Shown in pieces: positions 1,835-28,450 of a stretch of DNA of 36,798 nucleotides; the stretch's first letter is position 1; each line of letters opens with the position of its first letter. This DNA is from a virus. Its lineage: Duplodnaviria > Caudoviricetes. The position numbers and the translations under genes were made by a program. The notes under the pieces were generated by a model that searched no databases, was not told the origin of the DNA, and saw nothing but the letters and a program-made list of their open reading frames with translations. The stretch covers positions 1-36,798 of IMG/VR virus record IMGVR_UViG_3300030330_005218. One strand, written 5' to 3'.

Positions 1835-1841
1835 GTGTAAT
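1835..1841 (+). promoter_or_regulatory. GTGTAAT motif (candidate phage late promoter)
   Basis: Intergenic AAAAGTGTAAT, 14 nt before ATG 1856. The same heptamer recurs in six other intergenic gaps. Confidence 0.6.
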
Positions 1842-6117: not shown

Positions 6118-6124
6118 GTGTAAT
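6118..6124 (+). promoter_or_regulatory. GTGTAAT motif (candidate late promoter)
   Basis: In the 22-nt gap between 6115 and GTG 6138, followed by an AAGGA SD-like sequence. Confidence 0.6.
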
Positions 6125-6137
6125 AAAGGAATAAGAA

Positions 6138-7880
6138 GTGTCAAATATTAAGAAAATATTACCAAATTTAATAGACAGCGGCGATTTAACCATCGTTGGA
6201 GATCTTGAGATCTCTGGCACTATCTTTCAGAGCGGCTCTGTGTTCGAGGGAGGAGGCGGAGGAGGCGGCGGAGGAGGATCTTCGACCTTCACCGGTTTGA
6301 GCGACACGCCTAATTCATTTACCGCTAATAAAGTTCTTACGATTAACTCAGCAGGAAATGCGGTAGAAACGACTTTCAATGCTTCTGCTTTATCTGGTCA
6401 TCAATCTATAGAGCAGGGATACTTCACCGGTCTTACTATAAGCGGAACAAGTACAGGCATATTACAAAATGCAAGTGGTACAATTTCTAATTTAGATCTC
6501 GCCGATAACAAGTTCGATGTTAGTGTTATAGAAGAGAGAGATGCGACTGTCGGAGACACAAATTTTGATAAAGTAGAGTTACTTCTTCCGTTTGATGGCG
6601 CGAATGACGACACTTCAACCACAGACGAAAGCGACAATAATCATACCGTAACCTTTAACGGCAGCGCCGATATTTCTACAGCGCAAAGTAAGTTCGGAGG
6701 GAGCAGTCTTTATATAGGTGGAGGGAGTAACAATTGGGTTAATATAGCTGGAAGTTCTGATTTTAATTTTGGTACAGATGATTTTACCATAGAATGTTGG
6801 ATTTATAGAAATGGTACTTCCTATGGATTTGTATTTGAAACAAGAGGAGGAGAAGATACTACTAGTACTGATGGAATAGGTTTATACATGGGAAGCGGGG
6901 GAAACAATGAAATAGGAGTTGCTGTAAATCGCTCTAGTGTTATTCTCATAAATCAAGATCATCAAACTAATGACCAATGGCAGCATTTTGCTGTAGTTAG
7001 AGAAGGTTCTACGATGACTCTTTATATAGACGGAACGGCTAGAGGCACCGGTTCTAACTCTACTGATTTTAATAGATCCAGACCATTTAGGTTAGGCAAC
7101 TTCCACGGGTCTAGCTCTGGGGGTTACGGATTTCCCGGTTATATAGATGATTTTAGAGTTACAAAAGGACTTGCTCGTTATACTAGCAATTTTACTCCTC
7201 CATCTGCCTCCCATCCAACATCAAACAGTGTCACAGAAAATAAGTACATTGGTCAAATTGGCGGTATAGATGACAGTGATGTGGATTACGGTATAGAGAA
7301 GTTATCTAACTCTCAGCTGATGATTAAGAAGTTGTCAGATAATACTTTTACTCCAGATAGACTTTATGTAAATGTTAATAAATTAGGCGCGCTGGGACAA
7401 GGTGTAGCTTTCGATCAAGTTTATACTGGAGATGGTACAACTACTAATTACGCACTTTCAGAGAACGTCTCTAACGCGAGAGATGTATTAGTGTCGGTCG
7501 AAGGTCTAATACAAACGCCGATAACCGATTATACTCTTTTAGGTCAGACGGGAGTTTCGTTTACAACCGGCGTTACAAGTGGTCATGAAATTAGTTTCCG
7601 GCACTTGGCTTTAGGGCCTTCAGGCGCAACTGGGCCTTCGGGAGCCGACGGAGCTTCGGCGAATATTAGTTATTTAACTAACAGATTTACCGGTAACGGA
7701 GTTGTTAGTGGCTTTGAAATGACAAGATCAATATCAACTGCAGATGAAATTTTTGTTTTTGTGAATGGATTAGCACAAGATAGTGGAGAGAACTTTAGCG
7801 TTACTAACGGAACAGGACTATTTTTCTCCAGCGGAGAAATAGCTAGTGGAGATAAAATCATGGTGAGGCATGTATACTAA
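6138..7880 (+). CDS. Short fibre/scaffold protein (580 aa) with embedded LamG-like domain and two FTGDG modules
   Basis: GTG start with SD-like AAGGA. Poly-Gly, then LamG-like motifs (DFTIECW, WQHFAVVR, LYIDG, GYIDDFRVTKG). Ends IMVRHVY like the 2835-aa protein. Confidence 0.85.
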   Translation: MSNIKKILPNLIDSGDLTIVGDLEISGTIFQSGSVFEGGGGGGGGGGSSTFTGLSDTPNSFTANKVLTINSAGNAVETTFNASALSGHQSIEQGYFTGLTISGTSTGILQNASGTISNLDLADNKFDVSVIEERDATVGDTNFDKVELLLPFDGANDDTSTTDESDNNHTVTFNGSADISTAQSKFGGSSLYIGGGSNNWVNIAGSSDFNFGTDDFTIECWIYRNGTSYGFVFETRGGEDTTSTDGIGLYMGSGGNNEIGVAVNRSSVILINQDHQTNDQWQHFAVVREGSTMTLYIDGTARGTGSNSTDFNRSRPFRLGNFHGSSSGGYGFPGYIDDFRVTKGLARYTSNFTPPSASHPTSNSVTENKYIGQIGGIDDSDVDYGIEKLSNSQLMIKKLSDNTFTPDRLYVNVNKLGALGQGVAFDQVYTGDGTTTNYALSENVSNARDVLVSVEGLIQTPITDYTLLGQTGVSFTTGVTSGHEISFRHLALGPSGATGPSGADGASANISYLTNRFTGNGVVSGFEMTRSISTADEIFVFVNGLAQDSGENFSVTNGTGLFFSSGEIASGDKIMVRHVY

Positions 7881-9028
7881 TGAAAGAATTTAAACTAGAC
7901 AAAATCAAAGCGACCGGCACGACGGTTGGAGACGTGCATTTTCCGAAAGTTAAATGGCTGTCGCCTTTCGATGGGTCAAACGGAGCGACGACTACGACTG
8001 ACTCGAGCAACTCTAATCTTTCGTTAACTATACAGGGGTCAACTGTAATTTCTACAGCGCAAAGTAAATTTGGCGGAAGTAGTTTATATGTGACAAATTC
8101 TAGCTCAGAAGGAGTTTACGCTTCTGCAGCTGGCAGTACAATTAATTTGACGGGAGATTTTACTGTAGAGTATTGGTTTCGTAGAGTACAGGTAACACTT
8201 GCGGATAACATGGTATTAGGACCGTTGTACGGAGCTAATAGCACTACAAACCCTACAGGTTATAGCGGACTTTTAATTGGATATTATTACAGTTCGGTAA
8301 GCACATCTCAAGCTCTTTTATACAGCAGTAGTAATGGATCTAGCTGGAATGTAGCGCAAAATGTTCAAATGGGTACTGGCAGTCTTGGCACTGTAGGGCA
8401 ATGGGTGCATATGGCACTGGTCAGGTCTGGCACGACTTGGAGCTATTATGTTGACGGCACGAGGACTTATACTGGGACTCTTGGTTCTGATACATTAGCA
8501 ACTCCCGGGTCCTATATTATTCTGGGCAAAAGTTGGGGGAGTGGCACAAACAATGCAGAGGGTTACTACGACGATTTTAGAATCACCCAAGGATTAGCGC
8601 GTTATTCTGGAGCTTCTTTCACGCCGCCTACTACTGCGCATCTAACTTCCGCCGGAGATGTTAACAAGCACATCGTCGTCAACCCTGACGCAGATGGTGT
8701 TGCGATTGGCACAGGCGGCATTTCCCAAGAACGGGTCGCTAAAGCTTGGGTGAACTTTAACGGAACAGGGACTGTAGCTATAAATGGAAGCTATAACGTA
8801 TCTAGTATAACTGACGATGGGACAGGAGATTACGATATAAACTTTAGTACAGCGCTCGCAGACACAAATTATGCAGTTGTTGGTACGGTTGGAGGGTCAA
8901 ATATAGTGGAATTCAAAAGAGACCAAAATGAAACGAGAACAACAAGTAAAGCGGGAGTATATAGTCTTAACGGAAGTCATGCTTTAGCTGATGGCCCTCA
9001 TATAGAAGCAATAGTTTTCGGCAATTAA
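7880..9028 (+). CDS. LamG/ConA-like adhesin cassette 1 (putative receptor-binding protein)
   Basis: TTVGDVHFPKV, SKFGGSS, DFTVEYW, WVHMALVR, GYYDDFRIT, AHLTSAGDVNKHIVV, AKAWVNFNG, ending FGN*. Confidence 0.82.
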   Translation: MKEFKLDKIKATGTTVGDVHFPKVKWLSPFDGSNGATTTTDSSNSNLSLTIQGSTVISTAQSKFGGSSLYVTNSSSEGVYASAAGSTINLTGDFTVEYWFRRVQVTLADNMVLGPLYGANSTTNPTGYSGLLIGYYYSSVSTSQALLYSSSNGSSWNVAQNVQMGTGSLGTVGQWVHMALVRSGTTWSYYVDGTRTYTGTLGSDTLATPGSYIILGKSWGSGTNNAEGYYDDFRITQGLARYSGASFTPPTTAHLTSAGDVNKHIVVNPDADGVAIGTGGISQERVAKAWVNFNGTGTVAINGSYNVSSITDDGTGDYDINFSTALADTNYAVVGTVGGSNIVEFKRDQNETRTTSKAGVYSLNGSHALADGPHIEAIVFGN

Positions 9029-9031
9029 AAA

Positions 9032-10174
9032 ATGAATTTACAAAAATTAAGATTAGGGCAACTGAAACCAGCGGACGGAGCGACGACGGTTGGGGATGTG
9101 CATTTTCCGAAAGTGAAGCTTCTGTTGCCTTTTGATGGGTCGAACGGAGCAACGTCAACAGCCGATAGTAGTAGCATGGGTAATGCAATTACTTTTAATG
9201 GTAATGCACAAATATCTACGTCACAAAGCAAGTTTGGTTCATCAAGTGCTTATTTTGATGGTACTGGCGACTACATTGATGCCGGAGGAAGCTCTCTGAG
9301 GTCTGCGTGCGACAGCGGAGATTTTGCTCTAGAGTTTTGGTTCTACCAAGACTCAAGGCCTGATTACGCAAGCTTAATAACTAACTACGGAACAGGTAAT
9401 GGAGGGTGGGCTGTTTATATAAACAGCGGATCGCCACAGCAGGTATACTGGTGGCACTACAATGGATCTGGATGGGTCTACTTAAACCAGTCGCAAGGAA
9501 CTAGAACAACTATCACATTAGATACGTGGCACCACGTAGCAGTGACAAGAAGCGGAAGTACTTTTCGGCTATTTCTAAATGGAACACAGGAGGATACCAT
9601 AACCGACAGTAATAATATAACTGCTAGCAATGGTGCTGTTTTCAATGGCTTACGTTTCGGAACAATAAACGCAGGGCTACAGTATGCTTTCCACGGTTAC
9701 ATAGATGATGTTCGCATCACAAATGGAGATGCTCGTTATACTTCAAATTTCACACCGCCAACAACTGCGCATCTAACTTCTGCCGGAGACGTAAATAAAC
9801 ACATCGTCGTCAACTCGGACGCAGATGGCGTGGCGATCGGCACGGGTGGCATTAACCAAGCGCGGATTGCGAAAGCATGGGTAAACTTTAATGGAACGAG
9901 CACTGTAGCCATAAGAGAAAGTTATAACATAAGCTCTTTAGCTGATAGAGGAACGGGGCTTTACTCGTTGAACCTTTCGACAGCCTTGTCTTCTGTAGAG
10001 TGCGCAGGAGCAGGCTCCGCGACAGATCAAGACACAGGAACAGATACTACTCAGAGAAATAGAATGGTTACTATAATTCCAGAGTCAACAAGCCTTGTAT
10101 ATGTAAATGGTTTCGATACTAGTGGAAACGCAGACGATATAGCGATAGCGACAGCTATAATTTTCGGGAATTAA
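9032..10174 (+). CDS. LamG/ConA-like adhesin cassette 2
   Basis: Same architecture as cassette 1. N-terminus nearly identical to cassette 6. Confidence 0.82.
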   Translation: MNLQKLRLGQLKPADGATTVGDVHFPKVKLLLPFDGSNGATSTADSSSMGNAITFNGNAQISTSQSKFGSSSAYFDGTGDYIDAGGSSLRSACDSGDFALEFWFYQDSRPDYASLITNYGTGNGGWAVYINSGSPQQVYWWHYNGSGWVYLNQSQGTRTTITLDTWHHVAVTRSGSTFRLFLNGTQEDTITDSNNITASNGAVFNGLRFGTINAGLQYAFHGYIDDVRITNGDARYTSNFTPPTTAHLTSAGDVNKHIVVNSDADGVAIGTGGINQARIAKAWVNFNGTSTVAIRESYNISSLADRGTGLYSLNLSTALSSVECAGAGSATDQDTGTDTTQRNRMVTIIPESTSLVYVNGFDTSGNADDIAIATAIIFGN

Positions 10175-10179
10175 AAAAA

Positions 10180-10887
10180 ATGAGAGATTTTCTAGTAACA
10201 TACCTAAGTCCAAAATTAAAGTTGGAAGAAAACACCACTGTTAATTTAGATAACAGTATGTCCGCGGCAACTATCAATGCATTAATCGCCGCACAGCCGA
10301 AAGACTTGAATGGCTACATACTCACTTTTCAGTTCGCGGATGGGACATATACTCTGAACGAAACGTTAGATTTTTCTGGTTTTCGCGGAGGAGGAAGTTT
10401 AAGAATTCATGGCAACTCGTCAGATAACTCACTTAGTACGACAAAATCTGTAAATTTAGATTTTTCCGGTACTGCTGGACTGGATGGCTTACATGTTTTT
10501 AACAACGCAGGAGTACTATCAGACGTAATGTATCTTAAAATAACTACTAACTCTAGTAGTAGCGTATATTCATTATATTTTCGAAACTGCAGTTGGGCAA
10601 TAGTCTATTATAATTATGTTACTGCTTCTAGCGCTGCCAACGGCTTCGGATATACTTCATACGCTTCGCATTGCACTTTTCAGAATAACTATATTACAGG
10701 TCACTGGGCGGGATTCTATTTCACATACAGCTCTCATAATATGGCATGGGCAAATGATGATTCTGGAACTCTTCCATCACGCGCATATTACGGAGATGGC
10801 GGGTCAAGAACAGGGTATTATTCAACCGTCCCCTCTGCTTCAACCACACAAATCGTCCAAAATGGTGGGTCAAAAATAACTTCGTAA
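10180..10887 (+). CDS. Putative beta-helix (pectin-lyase-like) tail-associated protein
   Basis: 'INALIAAQPKDLNG..LTFQFADGTYTL' N-cap motif typical of right-handed beta-helix proteins, followed by Asn/aromatic-rich short strands. Lies within the fibre operon. Confidence 0.55.
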   Translation: MRDFLVTYLSPKLKLEENTTVNLDNSMSAATINALIAAQPKDLNGYILTFQFADGTYTLNETLDFSGFRGGGSLRIHGNSSDNSLSTTKSVNLDFSGTAGLDGLHVFNNAGVLSDVMYLKITTNSSSSVYSLYFRNCSWAIVYYNYVTASSAANGFGYTSYASHCTFQNNYITGHWAGFYFTYSSHNMAWANDDSGTLPSRAYYGDGGSRTGYYSTVPSASTTQIVQNGGSKITS

Positions 10888-10889
10888 AA

Positions 10890-11192
10890 ATGAAAGCTTT
10901 ATACAATAAAACAACAAAAGAGGTTCTTGAATGGCTTGACTCCACCTCAAACGCAATGGGCCTCGGTCCTGACATTGGTTTTATTAATCTACCTGACGTT
11001 TCAGAAGAAGATTCAAAAAGTATTACAAATCTAAACGATGTCACTGGATTTTCTCTCAAAGAATGCCAAGATAATAGAAAAGCCGAATATCCCAGTTTAG
11101 AGGAGCAACTAGACCACATATATCACAACGGAATTGATTCTTGGAAAACAAATGTAGTTCAACCAGTCAAAGATAAATATCCGAAACCATAA
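10890..11192 (+). CDS. Small phage protein, possible fibre-assembly chaperone
   Basis: C-terminal R..EYPSLEEQLD..YH.GID.WK....VKDKYPKP motif, which I recall next to tail-fibre genes in aquatic phages. The function is inferred from position. Confidence 0.55.
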   Translation: MKALYNKTTKEVLEWLDSTSNAMGLGPDIGFINLPDVSEEDSKSITNLNDVTGFSLKECQDNRKAEYPSLEEQLDHIYHNGIDSWKTNVVQPVKDKYPKP

Positions 11193-11201
11193 AGCAAAAA
11201 A

Positions 11202-11208
11202 GTGTAAT
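11202..11208 (+). promoter_or_regulatory. GTGTAAT motif (candidate late promoter)
   Basis: Intergenic AAAAAAGTGTAAT, 13 nt before ATG 11222. Confidence 0.6.
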
Positions 11209-11221
11209 TAAACTCTAAGGA

Positions 11222-14200
11222 ATGGCAACGGAAATTAAAAAGTTAAGACCGGAAAGTATAAGGACCACAGGAGCATCGGCTAATGACGTGCTTACTATTA
11301 GTGGCGGCGAAACAGTTTTCGCAAATGAACTTTCTTTGTCCGGCTTAAATATCGGCACTTCTGAGTCATTAGCTGGTAAAAAACTAAATATAGTTGGCGA
11401 TGTAGAGATTTCAGGAACTCTTTTCCAAAGCGGTGATATTTTCACTTCAAGCCCAGATTTGACTCAATCCGGATTTCTTACTGAAGAAAGCACTTCTGGG
11501 ACATATTCAACTCAATTTAATGTAAGTGTCGTAAATGATGGAGGGAATAAATATTATTTAAGTGAGGTAACTGGGGCTAGTCACACAAATGTCTCTCAAG
11601 TCAAACAGTTAGAAATATATCTTCAAAGAGGAAATACCTACAAATTTACTACTGATTCCAGCACAAATACTCATCCGTTTATTTTTGTTACTCAAGGAAA
11701 TGGAGGAAATTATACTTACGAATATACTTCTGGAGTAACAAATTCCAGAGCTCAGAACGGAGGGATTCTTTATTTTAGAGTCCCTCAATCCGTTCCTGAT
11801 ACTCTTTACTATCATTGTGGTGCTCATGGCGGTATGGGCGGAACCGTTAATATAGTAGGGGCTAGCGGAGCTGCTGGTTCTGACGGAGCGACTGGTCCTA
11901 CTGGCCCAACGGGTCCGACCGGCCCAACAGGTCCAACTGGCCCCGGCGGCACTGGCCCTGCCGGTCCAACTGGTCCGACTGGTCCAACGGGGCCTACAGG
12001 CCCAACAGGCCCAACAGGTCCAGTTGGAGCAACAGAGGACTTATCTGCTTCAGGCTTCGTAGACTCATCAACCAACCAAACAATTGGCGGTAATAAAACT
12101 TTTACGAGTGACGTTTCTATTAACAATTTAACTGTAACGGGAACTACGACAACAGTAAATACTACTGACCTTAATGTTAAAGATAATATAATTAAGATAA
12201 ACAGCGGTGAGAGTAGTGCTGGGATTGCCCTTAACTCTGGAGGACTAGTAATAGACAGAGGCAGTGCTACTGATGCAAATATATTGTTTAACGATACTAC
12301 TGATAGATTTGAAGTAAACTTTCCTATAGCTACTGAAAATAATTTAATATTAACAGAAGAAAGCACTTCTGGCACGTACTCTACTCAATTTAACGTAACC
12401 GTTTCTAATCCGGGAGCAGGTAATAAATACTATTTAAGTGAAATAACAGCAGGTAGTCACACAACGACTTCTCAAGTTCAACAGTTGCCAATATATCTTC
12501 AAAGAGGCAATAGTTATAAATTTGTGACAGACTCTAGCACAAATACCCATCCTTTTATTCTTGTGACTCAAGGAGGAGGCGGAGGATATACTTACGAATA
12601 TACTTCCGGAGTGACAAACTCTAGAGCTCAAAATGGAAGCACGCTTTATTTCAGAGTCCCACAATCCGCCCCAAATACTCTTTACTATCAGTGCGGCGCT
12701 CATGGTAATATGGGAGCACCTGTTTATATCGTAGGAGCGAGCGGAGCAACTGGTCCCGCGGGTTCAACCGGTCCGACTGGTCCAACTGGGCCAACAGGAC
12801 CTAGCGGTGCTGATGGCGCGGCTGGTTCGGCCGGTCCAACTGGACCAACGGGCCCAACTGGTCCTACGGGACCAACAGGACCAACAGGTCCAACTGGACC
12901 TGCGGGAGCAGGTGGAGGCGGAGGAGCTTCGGCGACTATAACTTCCGACACTTTTACAGCCAACGGAATACTTACTGGATTTTCTCTTTCTCTTACTCCT
13001 TCAGGAGTAAATAATATATTAGTAAGTGTTGGTGGTATACTTCAGACTCCAACTACAAACTATGTATTAGATGGCAGTACTCTTAATTTAACAAGTGCAC
13101 CTCCTTCTGGAGCAGAAATAGAAGTAAGAAATTTAGACTATCAAGGTGCTAGCGGCGCGACTGGCGCGACTGGTCCAGCCGGTCCGACAGGCCCTACGGG
13201 TCCTACCGGCCCAGCGGGTGCGACTGGGCCAAGTGGCGCATCAGGCGTTGCAGGTCCCGCCGGTCCCGCCGGTCCCGCCGGGGCAGACGGCGCAACCGTT
13301 ACTGGTGTCGGAATAGCTTCCAACAAGCTTTTTACCGGAGACGGAACCACAACAACTTACGCGATAGGTTCAAACGTTTCTCACGTTAAGGACGTAATGG
13401 TTTCGGTGGAAGGGTTAACTCAGATCCCCACAACAGACTATACTCTAACGGGTAGTACAGGAGTTGTATTTACAACTGCAGTCACAAGCGGGCGTTTAAT
13501 AGACATACGCCATTTGGCAATGGGGCCGAGCGGTGTGGCGGGTCCAGCGGGTTCGACTGGTCCAGCAGGTTCGACAGGGCCGAGTGGTGCAACAGGTGCG
13601 GCTGGCCCAACTGGTCCGACCGGACCAACTGGTCCGACCGGCCCTACAGGTCCTAGTGGCGCGACAGGCGCTACAGGCCCGGCTGGTTCTACAGGCCCTG
13701 CGGGTCCAGCGGGCGCTGACGGTGTTGCTTCGGGTGTTCAAAACGTAACCCAAGGATACTTCACTGGCTTAACTTTGACCGGAAGCAGTGTAGGAATAGT
13801 AAGCGGTGCCAGCGGAGTAGTATCTAACCTTGATCTTGCAGATAACAAATTCGACGTTAGTGTTATAGAAGAGAGAGACCTCATAGCAGGAGAAGAAAAT
13901 TTCGGTTCTGTAGAATTATTATTACCTTTCGATGGTTCGAATGGAGCTACAAGCACTTCTGATTCAAGTGATAGAGGTAATTCAATTACTTTCAACGGAA
14001 ACGCTCAAATTTCAACAGCTCAAAGTAAGTTTGGAGGAAGCAGTCTTGGCCTTGATGGCACTGGAGATTATTTAGATGTAGGGGACACTTATTGGAATAC
14101 CGCTCTCAACAATACTGATTTTACTATTGAGTTCTGGGTTAGATTTGACAGTCTAACCGGTGTTACACAGAGGCTCATAGTTAATAACAGCGGTTCAAAT

Positions 14201-19729: not shown

Positions 19730-20838
19730 TGAAGTTACCTAAATTAACAAATTTATCAGTTACCGGTACGACGGTTGGGGATGTGCATTTTCCAAAAGTG
19801 AAGCTGTTGTTGCCTTTTGATGGTTCGAACGGCGCCACGTCAACGACTGATAGCAGCAACACTAATAACTCAGTGACTTTTGTCGGTACTGCTCAGTTAT
19901 CTACGGCGCAAAGCAAATTTGGTGGGAGCAGCCTTCTACTGGATGGTAATAGCGACTACATATATATAGCTAACGATGACTTAGATTTTTCAAGCACTGA
20001 AAGTTTTACTCTTGAATTTTGGGTCTATTTTAATAATATAGACGATGGAAATATAGTAAATTTTTACTCTGATTATTCTGGAGCCAGCAACGGAATGTCA
20101 ATTGATAAGAGTACTGGTAATGTGCTTAGAGCTCATAATGGAGACTCGACCCGTATTACTGGAACAACGACAGTTTCAGCTGGCCAATGGTATCACATAG
20201 CGCTATCTGGCACTTCTGGGAGTTATAAACTATTTCTAAACGGAACTCAAGAAGGCAGCACTAGCAGTAATGGCTTCACAGGCGGCACTACTAATAAGTA
20301 TATAGGGACTTTCTATTGGGCAGGTTTAGGAGGGGCGGTTCGTCTCTTGAACGGGTATATTGAAGATTTTCGTATCACGAAAGGTGAAGCGCGCTATACT
20401 TCAAACTTTACCCCGCCGACTTCCGCTCATTTAACTTCCGCAGGCGACGTAAATAAGCACATTGTCGTCAACTCGGACGCGGACGGTGTAGCGATTGGTA
20501 CAGGCGGAATTAACCAAGCTCGGATTGCGAAAGCGTGGTGTAACTGGGACCAGACAGGAACAATCGCTATAAGATCTAGTTATAACATTTCTAGTATAAG
20601 TGACCTTGGTACTGGACGCACAGATGTAAATTTTTCAACCGCTATGGCTGATACAAATTATACCGCGGCCGTATACGGAAATCATTCAAGCTCTAATTCT
20701 GCATATACAAATTTTTCTGAGTATCAATCTTATGGAGCGGTATTGAGAACAGTAAACGATATTGAAGTCACTCATTATAAAGCTGGCACAGGCTACATTG
20801 ACTCAAAGCAGGCAGATTTAATAATTTTCGGGAATTAA
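19729..20838 (+). CDS. LamG/ConA-like adhesin cassette 3
   Basis: Same architecture. Start overlaps the stop of the giant fibre gene (TAATG). Confidence 0.82.
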   Translation: MKLPKLTNLSVTGTTVGDVHFPKVKLLLPFDGSNGATSTTDSSNTNNSVTFVGTAQLSTAQSKFGGSSLLLDGNSDYIYIANDDLDFSSTESFTLEFWVYFNNIDDGNIVNFYSDYSGASNGMSIDKSTGNVLRAHNGDSTRITGTTTVSAGQWYHIALSGTSGSYKLFLNGTQEGSTSSNGFTGGTTNKYIGTFYWAGLGGAVRLLNGYIEDFRITKGEARYTSNFTPPTSAHLTSAGDVNKHIVVNSDADGVAIGTGGINQARIAKAWCNWDQTGTIAIRSSYNISSISDLGTGRTDVNFSTAMADTNYTAAVYGNHSSSNSAYTNFSEYQSYGAVLRTVNDIEVTHYKAGTGYIDSKQADLIIFGN

Positions 20839-20841
20839 AAA

Positions 20842-21972
20842 ATGAGAGAATTAAAACTAAGTAATGTTAAGGTCGCGGGTCAGTCTAGCGGAGAGACTAA
20901 CTTTAATAAAGTATCTCTGCTCCTTCCTTTTGATGGGTCGGATACCGCAACTTCTACTAGCGACGAAAGTGATAATTCTCATACAATAACTTTTGCCGGT
21001 ACAGCTCAGCTAGATACAGCTCAAAAGAAATTTGGAACAGCTAGCCTTTTGCTAGATGGAGATAGTGATTATATTCAAGTCGCAGACCACGATTCATTTG
21101 ATTTTGACGCCGGAGACTTTACTGCTGAATGTTGGATTAGATTTGCAGCTTTGGGCAACAACACTATATTCAGTCATTGGGCAAATGGTACGGCAAGCTC
21201 AATGTCTTACTATTTAACATACTTTAACAGTAGCGGTATTTTAAGACTAGGTTATTATTTGGGCGGTAATCTCGATTCGACTTATTCGTGGTCGCCTTCT
21301 ACTGGTACTTGGTATCATGTCGCGCTAGAAAGAAGCGGTACAACAATAAAAGTATATATAGATGGTACGTCGGTAATTTCTGTATCTGCCTCTACTACAG
21401 CTTTAAGAGATTCTGAGGATCCGTTTAGAATAGGAGTATTTAATGACGCTACAACTGGCAGCCCGAGTTTAGATTGGTATTTTAATGGTCACATAGACGA
21501 CCTTAGAATAACTAAAGGTATTGCTCGTTATGGTACTAACTTTACTCCTCCAACTTCAGCGCATGAAACAACCGGAGGAGATGGAAACTTGCCTGTAGTA
21601 TTAGACGCTGATGCTACTGGAGTTAGAGTGGATTATGATGGGACAACTAACCAAACGCGACTTGCAAAAGCGTGGGTGAATTTTAATGGATCCGGGACAG
21701 TTCAAATAAGGAGCAGTTATAATATAAGTAGTATTACGGATCAAGCAACTGGATTCTACGTGGCCAACTTTTCAACAGCTATGGCAAACCATGATTATTG
21801 TGCGACCGTCAGCTCAGGTTGGAACACTGTGACTTGGGGCATTCCTATGTTTGGAACTATATCGGGAGAAACCACCCCTTTCACTGCTAGTAAAATAGGA
21901 GTTACGGTGAACGATCCGTCCGATACTGACACAGATAATGCGTTCGTAATGATACAAGTTTTCGGGAATTAA
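20842..21972 (+). CDS. LamG/ConA-like adhesin cassette 4 (divergent linker)
   Basis: LamG motifs and AKAWVNF...FGN present. Linker AHETTGGDGNLPVVLDADATG differs from the others. Confidence 0.82.
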   Translation: MRELKLSNVKVAGQSSGETNFNKVSLLLPFDGSDTATSTSDESDNSHTITFAGTAQLDTAQKKFGTASLLLDGDSDYIQVADHDSFDFDAGDFTAECWIRFAALGNNTIFSHWANGTASSMSYYLTYFNSSGILRLGYYLGGNLDSTYSWSPSTGTWYHVALERSGTTIKVYIDGTSVISVSASTTALRDSEDPFRIGVFNDATTGSPSLDWYFNGHIDDLRITKGIARYGTNFTPPTSAHETTGGDGNLPVVLDADATGVRVDYDGTTNQTRLAKAWVNFNGSGTVQIRSSYNISSITDQATGFYVANFSTAMANHDYCATVSSGWNTVTWGIPMFGTISGETTPFTASKIGVTVNDPSDTDTDNAFVMIQVFGN

Positions 21973-21975
21973 AAA

Positions 21976-23115
21976 ATGAATATAACCAAGCCAAGATTAG
22001 ACCAATTTAAAATAACCGGAAGCACGGTTGGAGATTTGCATTTTCCGAACGTCATCTTTCTCGCTAAGTTTGATGGCTCAAATGGCAGCACCAGTATCAC
22101 AGATTCTAGCAACAAAAATAATTCAATAACTGTGAACGGGGGCGCTCAAATTTCGACGGCGGCTAGCAAGTTCGGTGGAAGTAGCCTTAAGCTTGATTAC
22201 GAAAATGCGGGAACGGGAGATAGATTAATTGCCGATACAGTGGCGGATAATTTAACGTCAACTACTCATACTATAGAATTTTGGTTTAAAACTGATATGG
22301 CAGATAGTCATATCACTAGTCAAGATCCTGCCTTTTTTGGATTTAATGATGCTGGTAACAGTTATGATAATAGAATCATGCTGCAGATGACTTCCAAGAC
22401 TAATCTTCGTTTTTATCGCGGGGCTAGTAACTATCACGACATGACAGTCAGCGCTATGAATGATGACGCATGGCATCATATAGCAATTGTTTCTGACGGA
22501 ACAGATTATGATATATATTTCGATGGCAGCAGAATAAGTTCAGATGCAGGGGATTCTAGGCAAATAAATTCAAACGATACTTTTATGATTGGCGCAGAGT
22601 ATGACTCTGGTCCAAGTACAGGTAATTATTTTAGCGGTTATATAGATGATTTTAGAATTACTAACGCAGTAGCTAGATACACCGGAGATTCTTTTGCTTT
22701 ACCTACGACACATCTAACTTCCGAGGGAGATGTCAATAAACACATTGTCGTCAACTCTGACGCAGACGGTGTGGCGATAGGAACGGGCGGAATTTCTCAA
22801 GCTCGGATTGCTAAAGCTTGGGTAAACTTTAACGGAACGGGAACTGTGGCGATTAGGAGCAGTTACAATGTGAGTAGCATTACAGATGACGGAACGGGCC
22901 GGTATGATGTTAATTTTTCAACAGCGATGCCTGACAATGATTACAGCGTAGTTTCGGATGGTCGTTACAACACTGGAGATAGCGCTGGATCATCTGTCGT
23001 TACTGTAAGAAGAGAAGCTTTAACTACTTCGAAGTTCGGCGTGAGAGGAGCTAATGTTGCAACAGAAGCTTTCAATGATTTTGAAATGGTATCAGCAATA
23101 GTTTTCGGGAATTAA
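21976..23115 (+). CDS. LamG/ConA-like adhesin cassette 5
   Basis: Same architecture as the other cassettes. Confidence 0.82.
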   Translation: MNITKPRLDQFKITGSTVGDLHFPNVIFLAKFDGSNGSTSITDSSNKNNSITVNGGAQISTAASKFGGSSLKLDYENAGTGDRLIADTVADNLTSTTHTIEFWFKTDMADSHITSQDPAFFGFNDAGNSYDNRIMLQMTSKTNLRFYRGASNYHDMTVSAMNDDAWHHIAIVSDGTDYDIYFDGSRISSDAGDSRQINSNDTFMIGAEYDSGPSTGNYFSGYIDDFRITNAVARYTGDSFALPTTHLTSEGDVNKHIVVNSDADGVAIGTGGISQARIAKAWVNFNGTGTVAIRSSYNVSSITDDGTGRYDVNFSTAMPDNDYSVVSDGRYNTGDSAGSSVVTVRREALTTSKFGVRGANVATEAFNDFEMVSAIVFGN

Positions 23116-23121
23116 AAAAAT

Positions 23122-24264
23122 ATGGCTTTATCAAAATTAAGACTAGGACAGTTAAAACCAGCGGACGGAGCGACGACGGTTGGAGATGTGCATTTTCCGA
23201 ACGTGAAGCTTCTCTTGCCTTTTGATGGTTCAAACGGCGCTACTAGCACTAGCGATTCAAGCAATTCGAGTCAATCTGTTACATTTAATAACTCTGCAGA
23301 GATTTCAACTACGCAAAGCAAATTCGGAGGTAGCAGCTTAAGCTGCCCGGATGGATTAACGAGTGACGTTAGTACTTCTTGGAATGCTATGCCAACTGGC
23401 ACTGAGGATTTTACTATCGAATTGTGGGCCTACTTTATCGACAGAACAGGAGGGGGCAGAACCGAAACTGATTTTGGTATTTGGGGCAATAGAAATACTT
23501 CGGGTACAGACAATATCCATCTATATGTAGGTTATCCTGACGATAATATGCTAGGGTTTCTAATTAACGATACGGATGTGCAACTGACGACAACTTGGAA
23601 TGTTACTTCTAATTTGAACGCTTGGCATCATATAGCTCTAACAAGAGCAAGTAATACTTTTAAACTTTTTGTTGATGGTACTCAGGTAGGAACTACTACT
23701 TCTACAGCAACTATGACAAGATCTTATAGCGATTTATTTATCGGAAGCAGTGGGCATACGTGGAATGCAACCAGAGCCACAAGGGGATTCATTGACGGTT
23801 TTAGAATAACCAGAGGGACAGCAAGATACACATCTGCTTTTACTGCCCCTTCTTCTGCGCATCTGACTTCCGCCGGAGATGTTAACAAGCACATCGTTGT
23901 AAACTCCGATGCTGATGGAGTGGCAATTGGAACGGGCGGGATAAACCAAGCGCGGATTGCGAAAGCTTGGATAAATTATAATGGAACTACAGCAAGTATT
24001 AGAGACAGTTACAATATTGGGAGTATCACAGATAATGGCACTGGTCAACATACTATTAATTACTCAACAGCAATGTCAGATGCTAATTATAGTATAACTG
24101 TATTTGCGCATGATGATCAAACGAGCAGTTATTGGTGGAGATCAGCAGTATCTCAAGAAGGAGTTGCCCAAGCAGCAGGGTCCTTCAAAGTCGAAACAAT
24201 ACATCCGACAGTTGGGGACATTCGTGACAGTGATACTGTATGCGCACAAATTTTCGGGAATTAA
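23122..24264 (+). CDS. LamG/ConA-like adhesin cassette 6
   Basis: Same architecture. KLRLGQLKPADGATTVGDVHFP is shared with cassette 2. Confidence 0.82.
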   Translation: MALSKLRLGQLKPADGATTVGDVHFPNVKLLLPFDGSNGATSTSDSSNSSQSVTFNNSAEISTTQSKFGGSSLSCPDGLTSDVSTSWNAMPTGTEDFTIELWAYFIDRTGGGRTETDFGIWGNRNTSGTDNIHLYVGYPDDNMLGFLINDTDVQLTTTWNVTSNLNAWHHIALTRASNTFKLFVDGTQVGTTTSTATMTRSYSDLFIGSSGHTWNATRATRGFIDGFRITRGTARYTSAFTAPSSAHLTSAGDVNKHIVVNSDADGVAIGTGGINQARIAKAWINYNGTTASIRDSYNIGSITDNGTGQHTINYSTAMSDANYSITVFAHDDQTSSYWWRSAVSQEGVAQAAGSFKVETIHPTVGDIRDSDTVCAQIFGN

Positions 24265-24267
24265 AAA

Positions 24268-24501
24268 ATGAAAAAACTTTTACTAACTTTTACTTTAATT
24301 TTCTCCGGTTGTTCAACCGTAGACGATCAAGGTAGGTTGGAAAAAGTCAGAATCGCCGTACCAGCTTTCTTCCAAATAGAAATGGACTACTATAAAGATA
24401 AAGAGAATAAAGGCAAGGGAAGTGTAAATACTAACGTCGTACATTCTCCTTACGGGACTGTTAACGGTTATCCTAAATTAATGGACATGATAAGAAAATG
24501 A
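24268..24501 (+). CDS. Small lipoprotein (77 aa)
   Basis: MKKLLLTFTLIFSG|C: basic n-region, hydrophobic h-region, lipobox-like FSGC. Starts 3 nt after the cassette 6 stop; its stop overlaps the cassette 7 start (ATGA). Confidence 0.75.
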   Translation: MKKLLLTFTLIFSGCSTVDDQGRLEKVRIAVPAFFQIEMDYYKDKENKGKGSVNTNVVHSPYGTVNGYPKLMDMIRK

Positions 24502-25631
24502 GTTTTAACGCGCCAGATATAAGACAGTTTAAGTTGACCGGAAGTACGGTTGGAGATCTGCATTTTCCGAAAACGGAATTGCTGTTGCCTTTTGACGGAA
24601 CGAACGGCTCAACGTCAACAACTGATAGTAGCAATCGGAATAATTCAATTACTTTTAATGGTAATGCTCAAATATCTACGGCGCAAAGCAAATTCGGCGG
24701 AAGTAGTCTTTTGTTGGATGGGGCGGGAGATTATTTACAAGTCGCTAATCAAGATTATTTTGATTTTGGCAGTAGTGATTTTACTATAGAGTGCTGGTTT
24801 TATTTTGACTCTTCCTCAAGTGAAACTTATAACACTTTATTAGATATGGGTAATGGAAGTGCAGCGGGAAGCGGGCCGTATTGGACAGGAGTGAAAAGTG
24901 ATAGCGGAACTTATACTTTATTTGTGCAGATGGATAGCACAGCTGGGGGAGACTGGGATCTCATAAACAATGTGGCGATTACTACTGTATCAGCAAGCAC
25001 TTGGCACCATTTTGCAATAAGCAGAGAGGGTAGTAGTTTTAAAGTATTTTTAGATGGAACTTCTGTTTTAACAACGACTAATTCTAATCCTTTACGAGAC
25101 GAAAATAGCGCTCTGCAAATTGGAGCGAGAGGCCAGAATACGGCATCTCATTATTTTAAAGGGTATATAGATGACGTTCGCATAACGAATGGTGTTGGCC
25201 GCTATACATCAAATTTTACTGCTCCAACTACTGCGCACCTAACTTCCGCCGGAGATGCAAATAAACAAATAATTGTAAACTCCAGCGCCGATGGAATTGA
25301 TGTAGGAACGGGCGGAATAAACCAAGCGCGGATTTCTAAAGCGTGGGTAAACTTTAACGGATCAGGAACAGTTGCTATTAGAGACAGTTATAACGTAAGT
25401 AGTATCACAGATAATGGAACAGGCGACTACTCTGTCGTTTTTTCAACAGCGATGTCAGATGCTAATTATTGCATGAACATGAACTCAGGAGACAAGGCTA
25501 GTACGTGGGGAATTCCTATTTATGACGGAGTATCAAACTATACCACTTCGCTTTGCAGATTTTTGACACAAGGCCCAGATGACGGTCCAAATGACAACGT
25601 TATAGTGTGCGCAAGTTTTTTCGGGAATTAA
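24498..25631 (+). CDS. LamG/ConA-like adhesin cassette 7
   Basis: Same architecture as the other cassettes. Confidence 0.82.
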   Translation: MSFNAPDIRQFKLTGSTVGDLHFPKTELLLPFDGTNGSTSTTDSSNRNNSITFNGNAQISTAQSKFGGSSLLLDGAGDYLQVANQDYFDFGSSDFTIECWFYFDSSSSETYNTLLDMGNGSAAGSGPYWTGVKSDSGTYTLFVQMDSTAGGDWDLINNVAITTVSASTWHHFAISREGSSFKVFLDGTSVLTTTNSNPLRDENSALQIGARGQNTASHYFKGYIDDVRITNGVGRYTSNFTAPTTAHLTSAGDANKQIIVNSSADGIDVGTGGINQARISKAWVNFNGSGTVAIRDSYNVSSITDNGTGDYSVVFSTAMSDANYCMNMNSGDKASTWGIPIYDGVSNYTTSLCRFLTQGPDDGPNDNVIVCASFFGN

Positions 25632-25634
25632 AAA

Positions 25635-26735
25635 ATGAAAAAGTTACCTCTAGATTATATAAAAACTTTTGGGTCGACAGCTGGAGATGATCAATTTGCA
25701 AAAGTGACTGCGCTGTTCAACTTTGATGGCAGTGATGGGGACACTACTGCATCAGGACTAGATTCGAGTAATAAAAATCTCACTGTTAGCTATAGTTCAG
25801 GAGATCAGTTAAGCAACACTCAAAAAAAATTCGGTGCGACTAGTTTATATGTTGCCGATAACGTAGCACTCTCTTCTAGTGACGGATTTAATATGGGAAC
25901 GGGAGATTTTACTATTGAAGCATGGTATTATTTTACTTCTTTTAGTAATAGCTTCGGTCATTACGATCAATGGGCGGGAAGCTCAACTGGAGTGGGCAAC
26001 GTTCAAATGTGGAACTCAACTTCAGCCCAAGGGAAAATAAAGTGGTATTACAACGGTAACAGTAATTTTACATCTAGTACTACAATGTCTACCGGTCAGT
26101 GGTATCATGTAGCTTATGTCAGAGAAAGTGGGACTTTAAAAATGTACTTCAACGGTACAGTTGACTCGAATACTCAAAGTTATAGCAGCCAATTTGGTAA
26201 AACTGGCACAGTGTATCTTGGGGATCAACACGCAGGTGGCGGAGGAGCGCCACAGTATTACATAGACGACTTAAGAGTCACAAAAGGATTAGCTAGATAT
26301 ACTTCCAACTTTACTGCGCCGACTACTGCGCATTTAACTTCTGCGGGAGATTCTCTTAAGAATATTATTGTCAACGAAGATGCTGATGGAGTCATAATTG
26401 GAACAAGCGGCATAAGCACAACGCGGATTGCGAAAGCATGGGCAGAATTTGATGGATCTGGAGTGACTTTAAACGCATCTTATAACGTAAGCAGTATTAC
26501 TGATCATGGCAATAGAGATTATACTATAAACTTTTCTGCAGCAATGGCAGACGCAAATTACAGTATAGTAGGATCAAACATAGGGCAGACCGCTTCGTAC
26601 AACTGGTCTGTGGTCACAGGGATGGGGACAGCGAAAACTACTAGCGCAGCAAGAATAAATGTACCTCATATTAATGATAATAGTTTGTACGGTAACGACC
26701 CAGACGCAGTAAATGTAATAGCCTTCGGGAATTAA
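25635..26735 (+). CDS. LamG/ConA-like adhesin cassette 8
   Basis: Same architecture, with a more divergent N-terminus. Confidence 0.82.
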   Translation: MKKLPLDYIKTFGSTAGDDQFAKVTALFNFDGSDGDTTASGLDSSNKNLTVSYSSGDQLSNTQKKFGATSLYVADNVALSSSDGFNMGTGDFTIEAWYYFTSFSNSFGHYDQWAGSSTGVGNVQMWNSTSAQGKIKWYYNGNSNFTSSTTMSTGQWYHVAYVRESGTLKMYFNGTVDSNTQSYSSQFGKTGTVYLGDQHAGGGGAPQYYIDDLRVTKGLARYTSNFTAPTTAHLTSAGDSLKNIIVNEDADGVIIGTSGISTTRIAKAWAEFDGSGVTLNASYNVSSITDHGNRDYTINFSAAMADANYSIVGSNIGQTASYNWSVVTGMGTAKTTSAARINVPHINDNSLYGNDPDAVNVIAFGN

Positions 26736-26738
26736 AAA

Positions 26739-27845
26739 ATGAGACAATTTAAACTAGATAAAATTAAAGCTACTGGAACGACGGTTGGGGATGTGCATTT
26801 TCCGAAAGTGAGCCTGCATCTTACTTGCGAAGGGAGCAACGGTTCTACTACCGTGACTGATTCAAGTAATACTAATGCAAGTATAACGTGCATTGGATCA
26901 GCTCAAATTTCAACAGCTCAAAGCAAATTTGGCAGCTCTAGTTTAGCTACTGCTTCCGGAGATATTTCTATATCAACAACTAATATATTTAATTTTGGCA
27001 CTTCAGATTTTACTGTAGAGTTTTGGTTTTATAGAACAGGATTAGGATCTAGCAATAATTTTATCGTTGATGGAAGACCAAGCGGGAACAATTCTAATAC
27101 ATTTATGTTATATATGCCAACCAGTACAACCGCTCCAAGATATCATACTGCCTCTTCTGACCAGATAACTTCATCAATAAATTTAGGAACGAATGCTTGG
27201 ACGCATATAGCAGTAGTTAGAAACTCGGGGACTACAACTCTTTATATGAATGGTGTCAGCGGCGGGAGCTTTTCTGATAGCACTGATTATATCGATACAG
27301 GTGGCACAACATTAGGATTTTGGGCAGGCTCCTCAACTGATTATTCTATGTATACAACGCCCGGTTATTTTGATGATTTTAGAGTCACCAAAGGAGTCGC
27401 TCGTTATACTTCAAATTTCACGCCGCCAACTACTGCACATCTAACTTCCGCCGGAGATGTTAATAAACAAATCGTCGTCAACTCCGACGCAGACGGTGTG
27501 GCGATTGGAACGGGCGGCATTTCTCAAGCGCGGATTGCAAAAGCGTGGGTGTATTTTAATGGAGAAAATTCGGCGGCGAATATGATTCAAGGAAGTTATA
27601 ACATTTCCAGTATAGCTGATGACGGAACTGGGAAATATCAAATAAATTTTTCAACAAATATGTCTGACACTAATTATTCAGTTGTTGGTGGACTTGGCGG
27701 TACTTCCAATAGCTACTCTAGCACTATAGCAATTGTGAGGTTTTCTCATACTCCCGACGCAACACACCAAAACATGTCCACCGCGTATAGTAGTGGGAGT
27801 TTTTACGACTTTCCTAGAGTATACGTAGTATTTTTCGGGAATTAA
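26739..27845 (+). CDS. LamG/ConA-like adhesin cassette 9
   Basis: Same architecture. FKLDKIKATGTTVGDVHFPKV is shared with cassette 1. Confidence 0.82.
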   Translation: MRQFKLDKIKATGTTVGDVHFPKVSLHLTCEGSNGSTTVTDSSNTNASITCIGSAQISTAQSKFGSSSLATASGDISISTTNIFNFGTSDFTVEFWFYRTGLGSSNNFIVDGRPSGNNSNTFMLYMPTSTTAPRYHTASSDQITSSINLGTNAWTHIAVVRNSGTTTLYMNGVSGGSFSDSTDYIDTGGTTLGFWAGSSTDYSMYTTPGYFDDFRVTKGVARYTSNFTPPTTAHLTSAGDVNKQIVVNSDADGVAIGTGGISQARIAKAWVYFNGENSAANMIQGSYNISSIADDGTGKYQINFSTNMSDTNYSVVGGLGGTSNSYSSTIAIVRFSHTPDATHQNMSTAYSSGSFYDFPRVYVVFFGN

Positions 27846-27851
27846 AAAAAA

Positions 27852-27879
27852 TTGACTTTTAGCAAAAAAAATCTATAAT
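27852..27879 (+). promoter_or_regulatory. Sigma70-like promoter TTGACT-N16-TATAAT
   Basis: -35 TTGACT at 27852-27857 and perfect -10 TATAAT at 27874-27879, intergenic, upstream of ORF 27897. Confidence 0.6.
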
Positions 27880-27881
27880 AA

Positions 27882-27888
27882 GTGTAAT
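27882..27888 (+). promoter_or_regulatory. GTGTAAT motif (candidate late promoter)
   Basis: 8 nt before ATG 27897. Confidence 0.6.
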
Positions 27889-27896
27889 ATAGTAAA

Positions 27897-28133
27897 ATGG
27901 ACATCACAGGAAGAATTATTTATCCGACAGCTCCCGCAGAAGGAGAGAGTCATAGCGGTGTCGCAGTAGTTGTCCCGGCTCCTCAAGCCGTTGAACGAGG
28001 CGAAACCCATGAAGAGTTTATGGCTAGAATCGCCGCTAAAGACGTACCTGCAGGAGTTCCTTATCAAATTATTCCTATCGGCGATCTCCCTGCCGACAGG
28101 TATTTTAGAAACGCTTGGGAGTATGCGGAGTAA
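27897..28133 (+). CDS. Small phage protein, putative tail-fibre assembly protein (part 1)
   Basis: IAAKDVP.G.PY.I....DLP.DRYFRNAW motif, which I recall downstream of fibre genes in aquatic phages. Confidence 0.65.
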   Translation: MDITGRIIYPTAPAEGESHSGVAVVVPAPQAVERGETHEEFMARIAAKDVPAGVPYQIIPIGDLPADRYFRNAWEYAE

Positions 28134-28139
28134 TAAATT

Positions 28140-28412
28140 ATGCCAATCGGAGTAAATATCGCAAAAGCTAAGGAGCTCCAGAAGGAGCGCTTTCGCCAAG
28201 TTCGCAAGCCGCTTTTAGAGGCACTAGATATTGATTATCAACGTGCTGACGAAGCTGGAGATGCGTCCAAGAAAACAGAAATCGCCACTAAAAAGCAAGC
28301 TTTGAGAGATGTGACAAACAGTACGGCTCTTAACGACGCATCTTCGGCGACTGAAGTTCGCGCTGTGTGGGACACTGACGTTCTTGGTGCTAGGCCTGCC
28401 GAACATACTTAA
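28140..28412 (+). CDS. Putative tail-fibre assembly chaperone (Tfa-like helical domain, part 2)
   Basis: R..R..LL..LD......E......KQALRD.T pattern resembles Tfa-type chaperone C-termini. Confidence 0.65.
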   Translation: MPIGVNIAKAKELQKERFRQVRKPLLEALDIDYQRADEAGDASKKTEIATKKQALRDVTNSTALNDASSATEVRAVWDTDVLGARPAEHT

Positions 28413-28434
28413 TTTTCCAAAAAAACTTCATATA

Positions 28435-28441
28435 GTGTAAT
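28435..28441 (+). promoter_or_regulatory. GTGTAAT motif (candidate late promoter)
   Basis: 9 nt before ATG 28451. Confidence 0.6.
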
Positions 28442-28450
28442 TTATACTAT

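Follow-up and report, generated by a model that had tools for sequence, protein, structure and literature searches.

Record IMGVR_UViG_3300030330_005218, a genome fragment of a virus of the Caudoviricetes, carries at positions 6118-28412 what is likely a branched receptor-binding apparatus, in which the principle of gp10-like domains and docking peptides is laid out along collagen and loaded with non-enzymatic adhesins. The window analyzed here is the entire record (36,798 nt). It contains two parallel units, A and B, each with a scaffold fiber built from copies of a ~65-amino-acid (aa) module (the FTGDG module) and, behind it, a tandem array of genes, which we call cassettes. Each cassette encodes a short N-terminal peptide (the tag), a LamG domain, a ~30-aa neck, and a ~105-aa C-terminal domain (C-domain). 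A preliminary description of this DNA, made from the sequence alone, had interpreted the modules as docking hubs for the cassettes, and this interpretation is now supported by the fold of the module, by a complex prediction, and by the co-variation of module and cassette numbers.

The architecture of both units (table 1) was confirmed, including all open reading frames (ORFs), their lengths, and their coordinates. A hidden Markov model (HMM) built from the repeats recovered the reported 2 modules in scaffold A and 11 in scaffold B (domain E-values of 1.4e-24 or lower). Collagen-type Gly-X-Y runs fill 8 of the 10 gaps between scaffold B modules, the last two being without them, in agreement with the view that the modules are mostly spaced by collagen. 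Both scaffolds terminate in IASGD(K/L)IMVRHVY as described, and the junction with the first cassette is indeed shared: the same 23-nt sequence occurs exactly twice, and never in 100 shuffles. The nine cassettes (2 + 7) match Pfam Laminin_G_3 with E-values from 1e-13 to 2e-21; they had been presented as LamG proteins, but LamG is only one part of them, next to the neck and the C-domain.

The module was modeled with AlphaFold2 (AF2) from an alignment of 131 sequences (window and related loci). The model, with a predicted local distance difference test (pLDDT) of 94.3, is a ~65-aa beta-jellyroll, and its predicted fold is of the gp10 D2/D3 type, as had been suspected. It superimposes on XD2 (residues 189-250; Z-score 9.1, 1.7 Å, 62 aligned residues) and XD3 (residues 265-335; Z 8.7, 2.2 Å, 67 aligned) of CBA120 TSP4, as well as on residues 163-250 of a 602-aa chain of the T4 baseplate structure 5IV5 (Z 7.2, 1.9 Å, 67 aligned). 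This last segment is taken to be gp10 D2 on the basis of the chain length and of the ranges given in the accessible text of PMC6872550; T4 gp10 was missing from the top 50 matches of the wide structure search and was seen only in a second comparison. A chain of the B2 gp48/gp49 complex also matched (Z 8.8). At the sequence level, the module profile hit the Kp7 adaptor, HRP29 gp44 (187-222), and TSP2 (43-77), and scaffold B matched Pfam Phage_T7_tail (E 1.9e-29). In the three fibers of the window (scaffolds A and B and an upstream collagen fiber), the first module begins at residue 280, 424, or 573, not at the extreme N-terminus as in the T7 gp17 anchor. In CBA120, the termini of XD2/XD3 are adjacent and the opposite face of the trimer is left free for a partner trimer (accessible text of PMC8825819), a geometry that would suit a module inserted as a loop in a collagen rod.

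The cassettes have no anchor and begin instead with the conserved tag. We aligned 85 genes, comprising 80 full cassettes (<90% identity) and five natural genes that consist of tag and C-domain without LamG. All 85 N-peptides fall into one register, with Leu/Ile at position 8 (85/85), Leu/Ile/Phe/Val at position 11 (85/85), and Lys/Arg at position 12 (69/85). About a dozen tag variants recur between genomes in changing order. The tag is the constant part of a cassette and the payload is exchangeable, because LamG domains are no more alike within tag variants than between them (median identity 27% in both cases), and because LamG can be absent or replaced, some arrays carrying glycine-rich (Gly_rich_2) proteins in place of LamG cassettes. 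Tag, LamG, and C-domain have been swapped independently between genomes. An address code of one tag for one site was considered and is unsupported: 6 same-type pairs were seen versus 9.2 ± 2.9 after shuffling (P 0.17; 30 arrays, 99 genes).

The LamG fold is indicated by the Pfam match and by Foldseek matches to LamG-like domains and the Pan3 tailspike; the whole-cassette AF2 model used for the latter has a pLDDT of 54.6 with C-domain and tag unfolded, and only its LamG part was considered. The C-domain gave no PDB sequence match at E ≤ 1, whereas H_lectin was matched by 2 of 35 members, and Atlas scores of 0.80-0.82 for H-type lectin/Gp53-like_C provide a lead only. All nine window cassettes consist of LamG and C-domain with no enzyme domain detected, and only the 235-aa ORF of unit A is beta-helix-like. 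The cassette proteins are probably glycan-binding, non-enzymatic adhesins. The upstream fiber ends in the same C-domain.

For the docking prediction, three copies of the terminal module of a related locus (L009; ~79% identical to the terminal module of scaffold B) were modeled together with a natural client from that locus, a 116-aa protein of tag and C-domain, also in three copies. The predicted assembly, a module trimer holding cassette N-peptides, passed with an ipSAE of 0.69, compared with 0.00 for the best of three controls; single runs gave 0.13, 0.69, and 0.75. In calibration, 116 of 157 solved pairs and 2 of 215 mismatched ones attain the ipSAE mark, figures that are only roughly valid here. 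At least 51% of contacts are common to the runs, and the partner pLDDT is at least 89. Although the C-domain was also offered, confident contacts are confined to client residues 1-7, 9, 10, and 12; on the module they involve residues 32-39, 42-43, 53-54, 57, 59, 61-63, and 65, and each tag touches two modules. The contacts with the lowest error are those of Thr4 of the tag. Positions 8 and 11, invariant in the tag, are absent from the listed interface and may be packed between the three tags. The Gln of the NGxxQ strand, contacted in the model, is present in 15/15 window modules and 108/126 aligned modules. In addition, the net charge is negative in all 15 window modules and positive in all nine cassette tags.

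Relatives were collected by module, cassette, scaffold-linker, and tail-tube searches, which yielded 305 loci, redundancy included (below, L denotes a locus and G a record, the window being G000). In ten units for which both ends could be seen, more modules go with more cassettes, as the docking idea had predicted (rho 0.87, p 0.0012). The counts were entered by hand; since the units are kin, both values are overstated. The module:cassette counts are 2:2 (five times), 2:1, 3:2, 4:4, 8:5, and 11:7, and short two-module scaffolds almost always have two cassettes. Truncated units were excluded (L005, 6 versus at least 6; L009, at least 4 versus 5), as was L189, with at least 5 modules versus one cassette and two glycine-rich genes. 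Over its whole record, G001 (144 kb, 90% complete) encodes two modules and two cassettes, and the tail-tube relatives G006 and G007 (83% and 87% complete) have neither in theirs; the complete 296-kb G004 has 5 modules and no C-domain. The tail tube is preceded by 6 kb or more of visible sequence in 71 loci; of these, 62 lack both features, 7 have both, 2 have cassettes only, and none has modules only. Five of the 7 came from module/linker searches, and the 2 cassette-only loci break off short of the scaffold. Since these loci form one clade, a single evolutionary event could account for the whole pattern.

Based on these observations, we propose that the long fibers are trimeric racks with collagen as the spacer. 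Each module trimer would hold one cassette trimer by its 12-residue tags, and the virion would in this way present several different proteins, probably glycan-binding, at the same time. The scaffold is presumably a homotrimer, as its collagen and the XD precedent suggest, and each module position would therefore be a three-fold docking face. In the prediction, which covers one terminal module of a relative, the tag lies between two neighboring modules on the NGxxQ strand. Collagen rises 0.29 nm per residue; the ~200 Gly-X-Y triplets of scaffold B would form a rod of roughly 170 nm. Such racks may serve to adsorb the phage reversibly to surface glycans that vary, while DNA would enter via a separate lambda-J-like tail tip of the kind seen in a relative.

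The hierarchy may extend further. The upstream fiber (1856-6115) is a candidate for the primary fiber, and scaffold B might hang by its tag-like N-terminus on an upstream-fiber module, giving a two-tier tree. A tag profile derived from the cassettes scores this N-terminus at 5.9 and its G002 counterpart at 9.0, whereas among 838 background starts five reach 5 and one reaches 8. G005 has the same layout as the window: an upstream fiber with 2 modules, scaffold A with 2:2, and scaffold B with 8:5. The two-tier tree is a lead, and the 235-aa beta-helix protein is a possible extra client. Scaffolds of the G001 type have no tag and are preceded by a 127-aa gene with a weak match to L-shaped tail fiber assembly (E 1.5e-4), which hints at a fiber on a lateral tail collar. 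The position of the fiber genes adjoining a capsid gene would also fit attachment at the head or neck.

Several observations weigh against this proposal. The modeled pair comes from L009 rather than from the window and does not include a collagen-flanked module; one of the three runs scored just 0.13, and the pass may reflect likeness rather than binding, because solved XD complexes exist. Predicted interface positions are no more conserved than the rest of the module (mean 0.47 versus 0.47). N-terminal anchors of the T7 gp17 type match the module equally well or better (Z 8.0-10.1), and a T5/DT57C neck protein matches as well (Z 8.5); since such proteins share the fold, it does not dictate peptide docking. 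Module and cassette counts are not 1:1 (11:7, 8:5, 3:2, 2:1), and one L194 scaffold, left out of the correlation, has no cassette behind it. Relatives with many modules and no cassettes had been named as evidence that would speak against docking. Outside the close family this is in part the case: 90 of 306 loci, the complete G004 included, bear modules without a LamG + C-domain cassette, although these loci often encode other genes starting with a similar peptide. Finally, the tag profile gives -8.0 for the N-terminus of scaffold A and -0.1 for the 235-aa protein; given these misfits, scaffold B is the only one for which the two-tier tree has support.

Some of these points would also fit a more modest arrangement, in which only terminal or few modules dock, the cassettes compete, each fiber or virion carries few tips (a mixed population), and internal modules are folding or trimerization knots. 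The complex model covered a terminal module only, modules outnumber cassettes in both complete long units (11:7 and 8:5), G7C has one of its two XD domains occupied (accessible texts of PMC8825819 and PMC6872550), and tags of the same type recur within some arrays, as the shuffling test above shows. On the other hand, internal modules retain the contacted Gly/Gln strand (15/15) and the negative charge, and additional modules are accompanied by additional cassettes, two-module scaffolds nearly always having two. We regard this arrangement as unlikely.

Docking along the rack also has to be weighed against the idea that the cassettes are tip adhesins or separately anchored fibers like T-even gp38, or bind another part of the virion, with the modules binding other structural proteins. 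T7-type anchors are among the best structural matches of the module, and some arrays contain Gly_rich_2 proteins whose N-termini misfit the tag profile, Gly_rich_2 being a domain of gp38-type adhesins. The predicted interface, however, places the tag on the module with controls at 0.00, and 56 of 59 cassette-bearing loci also have a module, the other three being cut short; this share is inflated, as many loci were fetched by scaffold queries. Taken together, we consider this idea improbable. Least probable is a third idea, by which the array mainly stores donor copies that recombine into a single expressed site, or else makes soluble decoy or exclusion proteins and not virion parts: DNA blocks 60-83% identical, a near-constant junction TTTTCGGGAATTAAAAAATG between cassettes, parts shuffled between genomes, and a lipoprotein gene within the array would suit it, but all nine genes are intact and start with an ATG of their own, which in eight cases overlaps the preceding stop or lies within 6 nt of it, codon differences within tag types are 288 synonymous versus 183 non-synonymous (a comparison biased by the definition of tag types through amino-acid pattern), and no recombinase or reverse transcriptase, as expected of a diversity-generating or invertible cassette system, was found among the 28 window proteins scanned of this genome fragment.

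Judging from sequence and predicted fold, the window system belongs with the gp10-like-domain/docking-peptide systems and is not a tailspike-depolymerase complex. The same module fold occurs in the branched TSP1-4 complex of CBA120 (Ackermannviridae) and in T4 gp10 D2/D3. In CBA120, trimeric XD faces bind partner trimers, and an acidic XD3 faces a basic client N-terminus (accessible text of PMC8825819). However, its two docking XDs are packed in the tailspike head, its clients are beta-helix enzymes that cleave lipopolysaccharide, and it has a myovirus baseplate; here, up to 11 modules lie along collagen, the clients are LamG + C-domain proteins, and a lambda-like tail tip is seen in a relative. 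An anchorless second receptor-binding protein (RBP) attached by a short N-terminal peptide is likewise found in KP32, K1-5, and G7C, a likeness in arrangement. According to the accessible texts, the K1-5 docking peptide comprises 7-11 residues (PMC6872550), and in KP32 the incorporation of RBP2 requires both the branching domain and the docking peptide, as genetically validated (PMC13352976). These are podoviruses with two RBPs, in contrast to the 7-9 clients, the dozen or so tag variants, and the payloads exchanged behind the tag described here.

Many RBPs in tiers are also known from RaK2/phiK64-1 and phiKp24: the accessible texts give nine proteins for the long fiber of RaK2 and 14 predicted RBPs for phiKp24 (PMC10253068, bioRxiv 10.1101/2022.03.15.484430). 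Those phages are jumbo myoviruses with depolymerases whose branching runs over several enzymes, with no collagen spacing described in these texts, whereas here branching occurs on one rack. The highest number of docking domains we found in the literature is the five XD domains predicted for RaK2 gp528 (same sources), compared with 11 modules per chain here. In A1002, a rope protein offers many docking sites to 11 fiber dimers by beta-augmentation (accessible text of PMC13730344); A1002, GP4, and VP1 carry dimers of one or two proteins on the rope, the texts describe no XD module or trimeric collagen, and the likeness is an analogy only. The anchor of T7 gp17 (Pfam Phage_T7_tail) has the same fold, and there a single N-terminal copy fixes the fiber to the tail; here the repeats are internal and C-terminal. 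Our literature search, which covered mostly freely accessible main texts, turned up no collagen-spaced XD rack carrying LamG clients.

If the proposal holds, the rule of branching domain and docking peptide would extend from enzyme tailspikes to a collagen rack, one virion would carry many different host-recognition tips, and module count plus tagged genes would be a readable signature of the number of receptor-binding tips of an uncultured phage. The minimal pair, a 70-aa module and a 12-aa tag, is testable in Escherichia coli without the host. A broader reading, to which we give slightly less than an even chance, is that the FTGDG module and a tag of the form [TS]-[KR]-hydrophobic-x4-hydrophobic are a general plug and socket of aquatic phages for multi-tier antenna trees (a primary fiber, then ~170-nm collagen racks, then exchangeable tips, a dozen in number, of lectin, beta-helix, or glycine-rich type), and that branched machines for host recognition, so far described mainly in enterobacterial phages with depolymerases, are common among uncultured viruses, with wiring readable from sequence. 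Strict starts ([TSQ]-[KR]-hydrophobic-x4-hydrophobic), a motif chosen after the module loci had been seen, occur in 29 of 458 genes of distant module loci, 0 of 464 of LamG loci without module, and 7 of 454 of tail-tube loci without module. The lowest-error Thr4 contacts of the docking model agree with the [TSQ] position. A loose form of the motif did not discriminate (61/458 and 13/464, but 80/454 in tail-tube loci without module). The module core pattern occurs in an estimated ~1500 IMG/VR stretches, relatives being confirmed in 245 of 609 examined; therefore, many genes that now carry the label "hypothetical" or "baseplate wedge" may belong to trees of this kind. In seven loci (L027, L040, L042, L062, L074, L080, and L081), M-[AP]-Y-[IL]-G genes with 1-3 modules alternate with M-A-L-[TS]-K genes, and these loci may hold multi-tier trees of unrelated aquatic phages.

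Table 1. Positions of the fiber genes, modules, cassettes, and neighboring elements in the window
Feature	Position	Strand	Basis or remark
GTGTAAT motif, promoter-like, before upstream fiber	1835..1841	+	Same position in relatives L303, L158
Upstream collagen fiber, 1419 aa, 2 modules (2693-2899, 3134-3334) and cassette-type C-domain	1856..6115	+	Module HMM
GTGTAAT motif, unit A	6118..6124	+	
Scaffold A, 580 aa: LamG, then 2 modules (7407-7610, 7671-7877)	6138..7880	+	Pfam, module HMM
Cassette A1: N-peptide, LamG, neck, C-domain	7880..9028	+	
Cassette A2	9032..10174	+	
235-aa predicted right-handed beta-helix protein	10180..10887	+	Atlas feature score 0.95
100-aa protein accompanying the beta-helix domain	10890..11192	+	Also adjoins it in G004
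GTGTAAT motif, unit B	11202..11208	+	
Scaffold B, 2835 aa: ~200 Gly-X-Y triplets, 2 LamG, 11 modules	11222..19729	+	Pfam, module HMM
Scaffold B modules 1-6	12938-13138, 13316-13519, 14750-14953, 15470-15676, 15767-15970, 17270-17473	+	
Scaffold B modules 7-11	17675-17878, 18143-18346, 19064-19267, 19292-19501, 19523-19726	+	
Cassette B1	19729..20838	+	
Cassette B2	20842..21972	+	
Cassette B3	21976..23115	+	
Cassette B4	23122..24264	+	
77-aa lipoprotein-like ORF within array	24268..24501	+	Copies 70-87% identical in relatives' arrays
Cassette B5	24498..25631	+	
Cassette B6	25635..26735	+	
Cassette B7	26739..27845	+	
GTGTAAT motif ahead of 78+90-aa pair	27882..27888	+	
78-aa conserved ORF	27897..28133	+	Last of array in relatives
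90-aa ORF	28140..28412	+	Tail-assembly-chaperone match under cut-off

The GTGTAAT motif heads units A and B, as had been described, but the 78+90-aa pair has its own copy at 27882 and thus need not belong to unit B alone. Besides the copies in table 1, the motif occurs at 28435, 32903, and 34992. Its count is not over-represented (7 versus 5.0 ± 2.3 expected). All seven copies are intergenic, on the + strand, and 14-41 nt ahead of structural gene starts, with intergenic DNA making up 1.8% of the window, and the motif occupies matching places in relatives. It is likely a late-promoter element of this phage group. No copy lies between a scaffold and its cassettes, whose genes are tightly coupled behind it. 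A scan for Sigma-70 sites was uninformative (48 versus 42.2 ± 7.0 expected). The chaperone label given to the small ORFs is weakly supported: the 90-aa ORF matches Phage_tail_APC below the cut-off (E 0.0012; 19.1 bits versus 26.6), whereas the 78- and 100-aa ORFs have no Pfam match, and an assembly-factor role for the former or a chaperone role for the latter can only be conjectured.

Downstream of the fiber genes, sequence and synteny point to a gene resembling a tail tube and to the beginning of one resembling a tape measure, neither of which gave a family match in domain scans of the window proteins. In relatives, the fiber block sits between a capsid-like gene (weak Phage_capsid_4 match, E 0.042) and neck/tail genes. 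The phage is most likely a siphovirus, because G001 encodes, further along, lambda-like minor tail genes and a central fiber J (PHROG E-values down to 4.5e-123). Scaffold A resembles the C-terminal part of the 2720-aa fiber of G001, with modules 94% and 86% identical.

At least half of the words of the array are present in 15 public runs; without 6 possible source runs, 9 runs from 4 studies are left, every one labeled marine metagenome. In four public runs, possible sources excluded, near-identical contigs cover 29-30 of 30 bins of 18500-28700, with no single contig from these runs spanning the whole region. Public RNA runs contain at most 0.18 of the array's words and gave no sign of expression. 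Cassette-skipping joints in public contigs were rejected as evidence of rearrangement: their sides are short, they fall at shared blocks, and they could derive from unit A or other strains. Tail-tube relatives were found in metagenome-assembled genomes of Flavobacteriales (3-4 records), Pseudomonadales, Halobacteriovorax, Neomarinimicrobiota, and an archaeon (8 loci); with this spread, binning points to no host.

The 77-aa lipoprotein-like gene keeps its array position in relatives (L003:398, L215:6206, L304:11037, L188:4104, L194:8632), mostly directly before a cassette of the MSFNAPD type; superinfection exclusion or receptor masking is a possible function. Kinship with the 76-aa lipoprotein preceding L005-type scaffolds is doubtful (21% identity, E 0.017). 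Gly_rich_2 proteins replace LamG cassettes at L197:5298-6269, L189:5559-7499, and L199:8937-9920, and the same N-terminus, which misfits the cassette tag profile, also occurs on the long scaffolds of L005, L006, L086, and L208, which suggests a second docking mode. In the N-terminal region of scaffold B, a ~100-aa domain with a His/Cys-containing end is duplicated (11542-11841 and 12418-12717; 79% DNA identity) and is possibly metal-binding. A 549-aa repetitive protein (178-1827), without Pfam or PHROG match, directly precedes the upstream fiber, is conserved there in five other loci, and is a candidate anchor. In G005, far from the main fiber block, two tiny C-domain-only genes (L305:3151-4182) adjoin a 117-aa gene of a type found ahead of scaffolds in other relatives. 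Two tandem tail-tube genes are present at L176:16079-18790 and L177:16096-18815, and likewise in several other loci. Module-less distant tail-tube relatives (L267, upstream of the tail tube, L277, and L285) carry other tandem arrays of 250-290-aa paralogs at the same genomic position.

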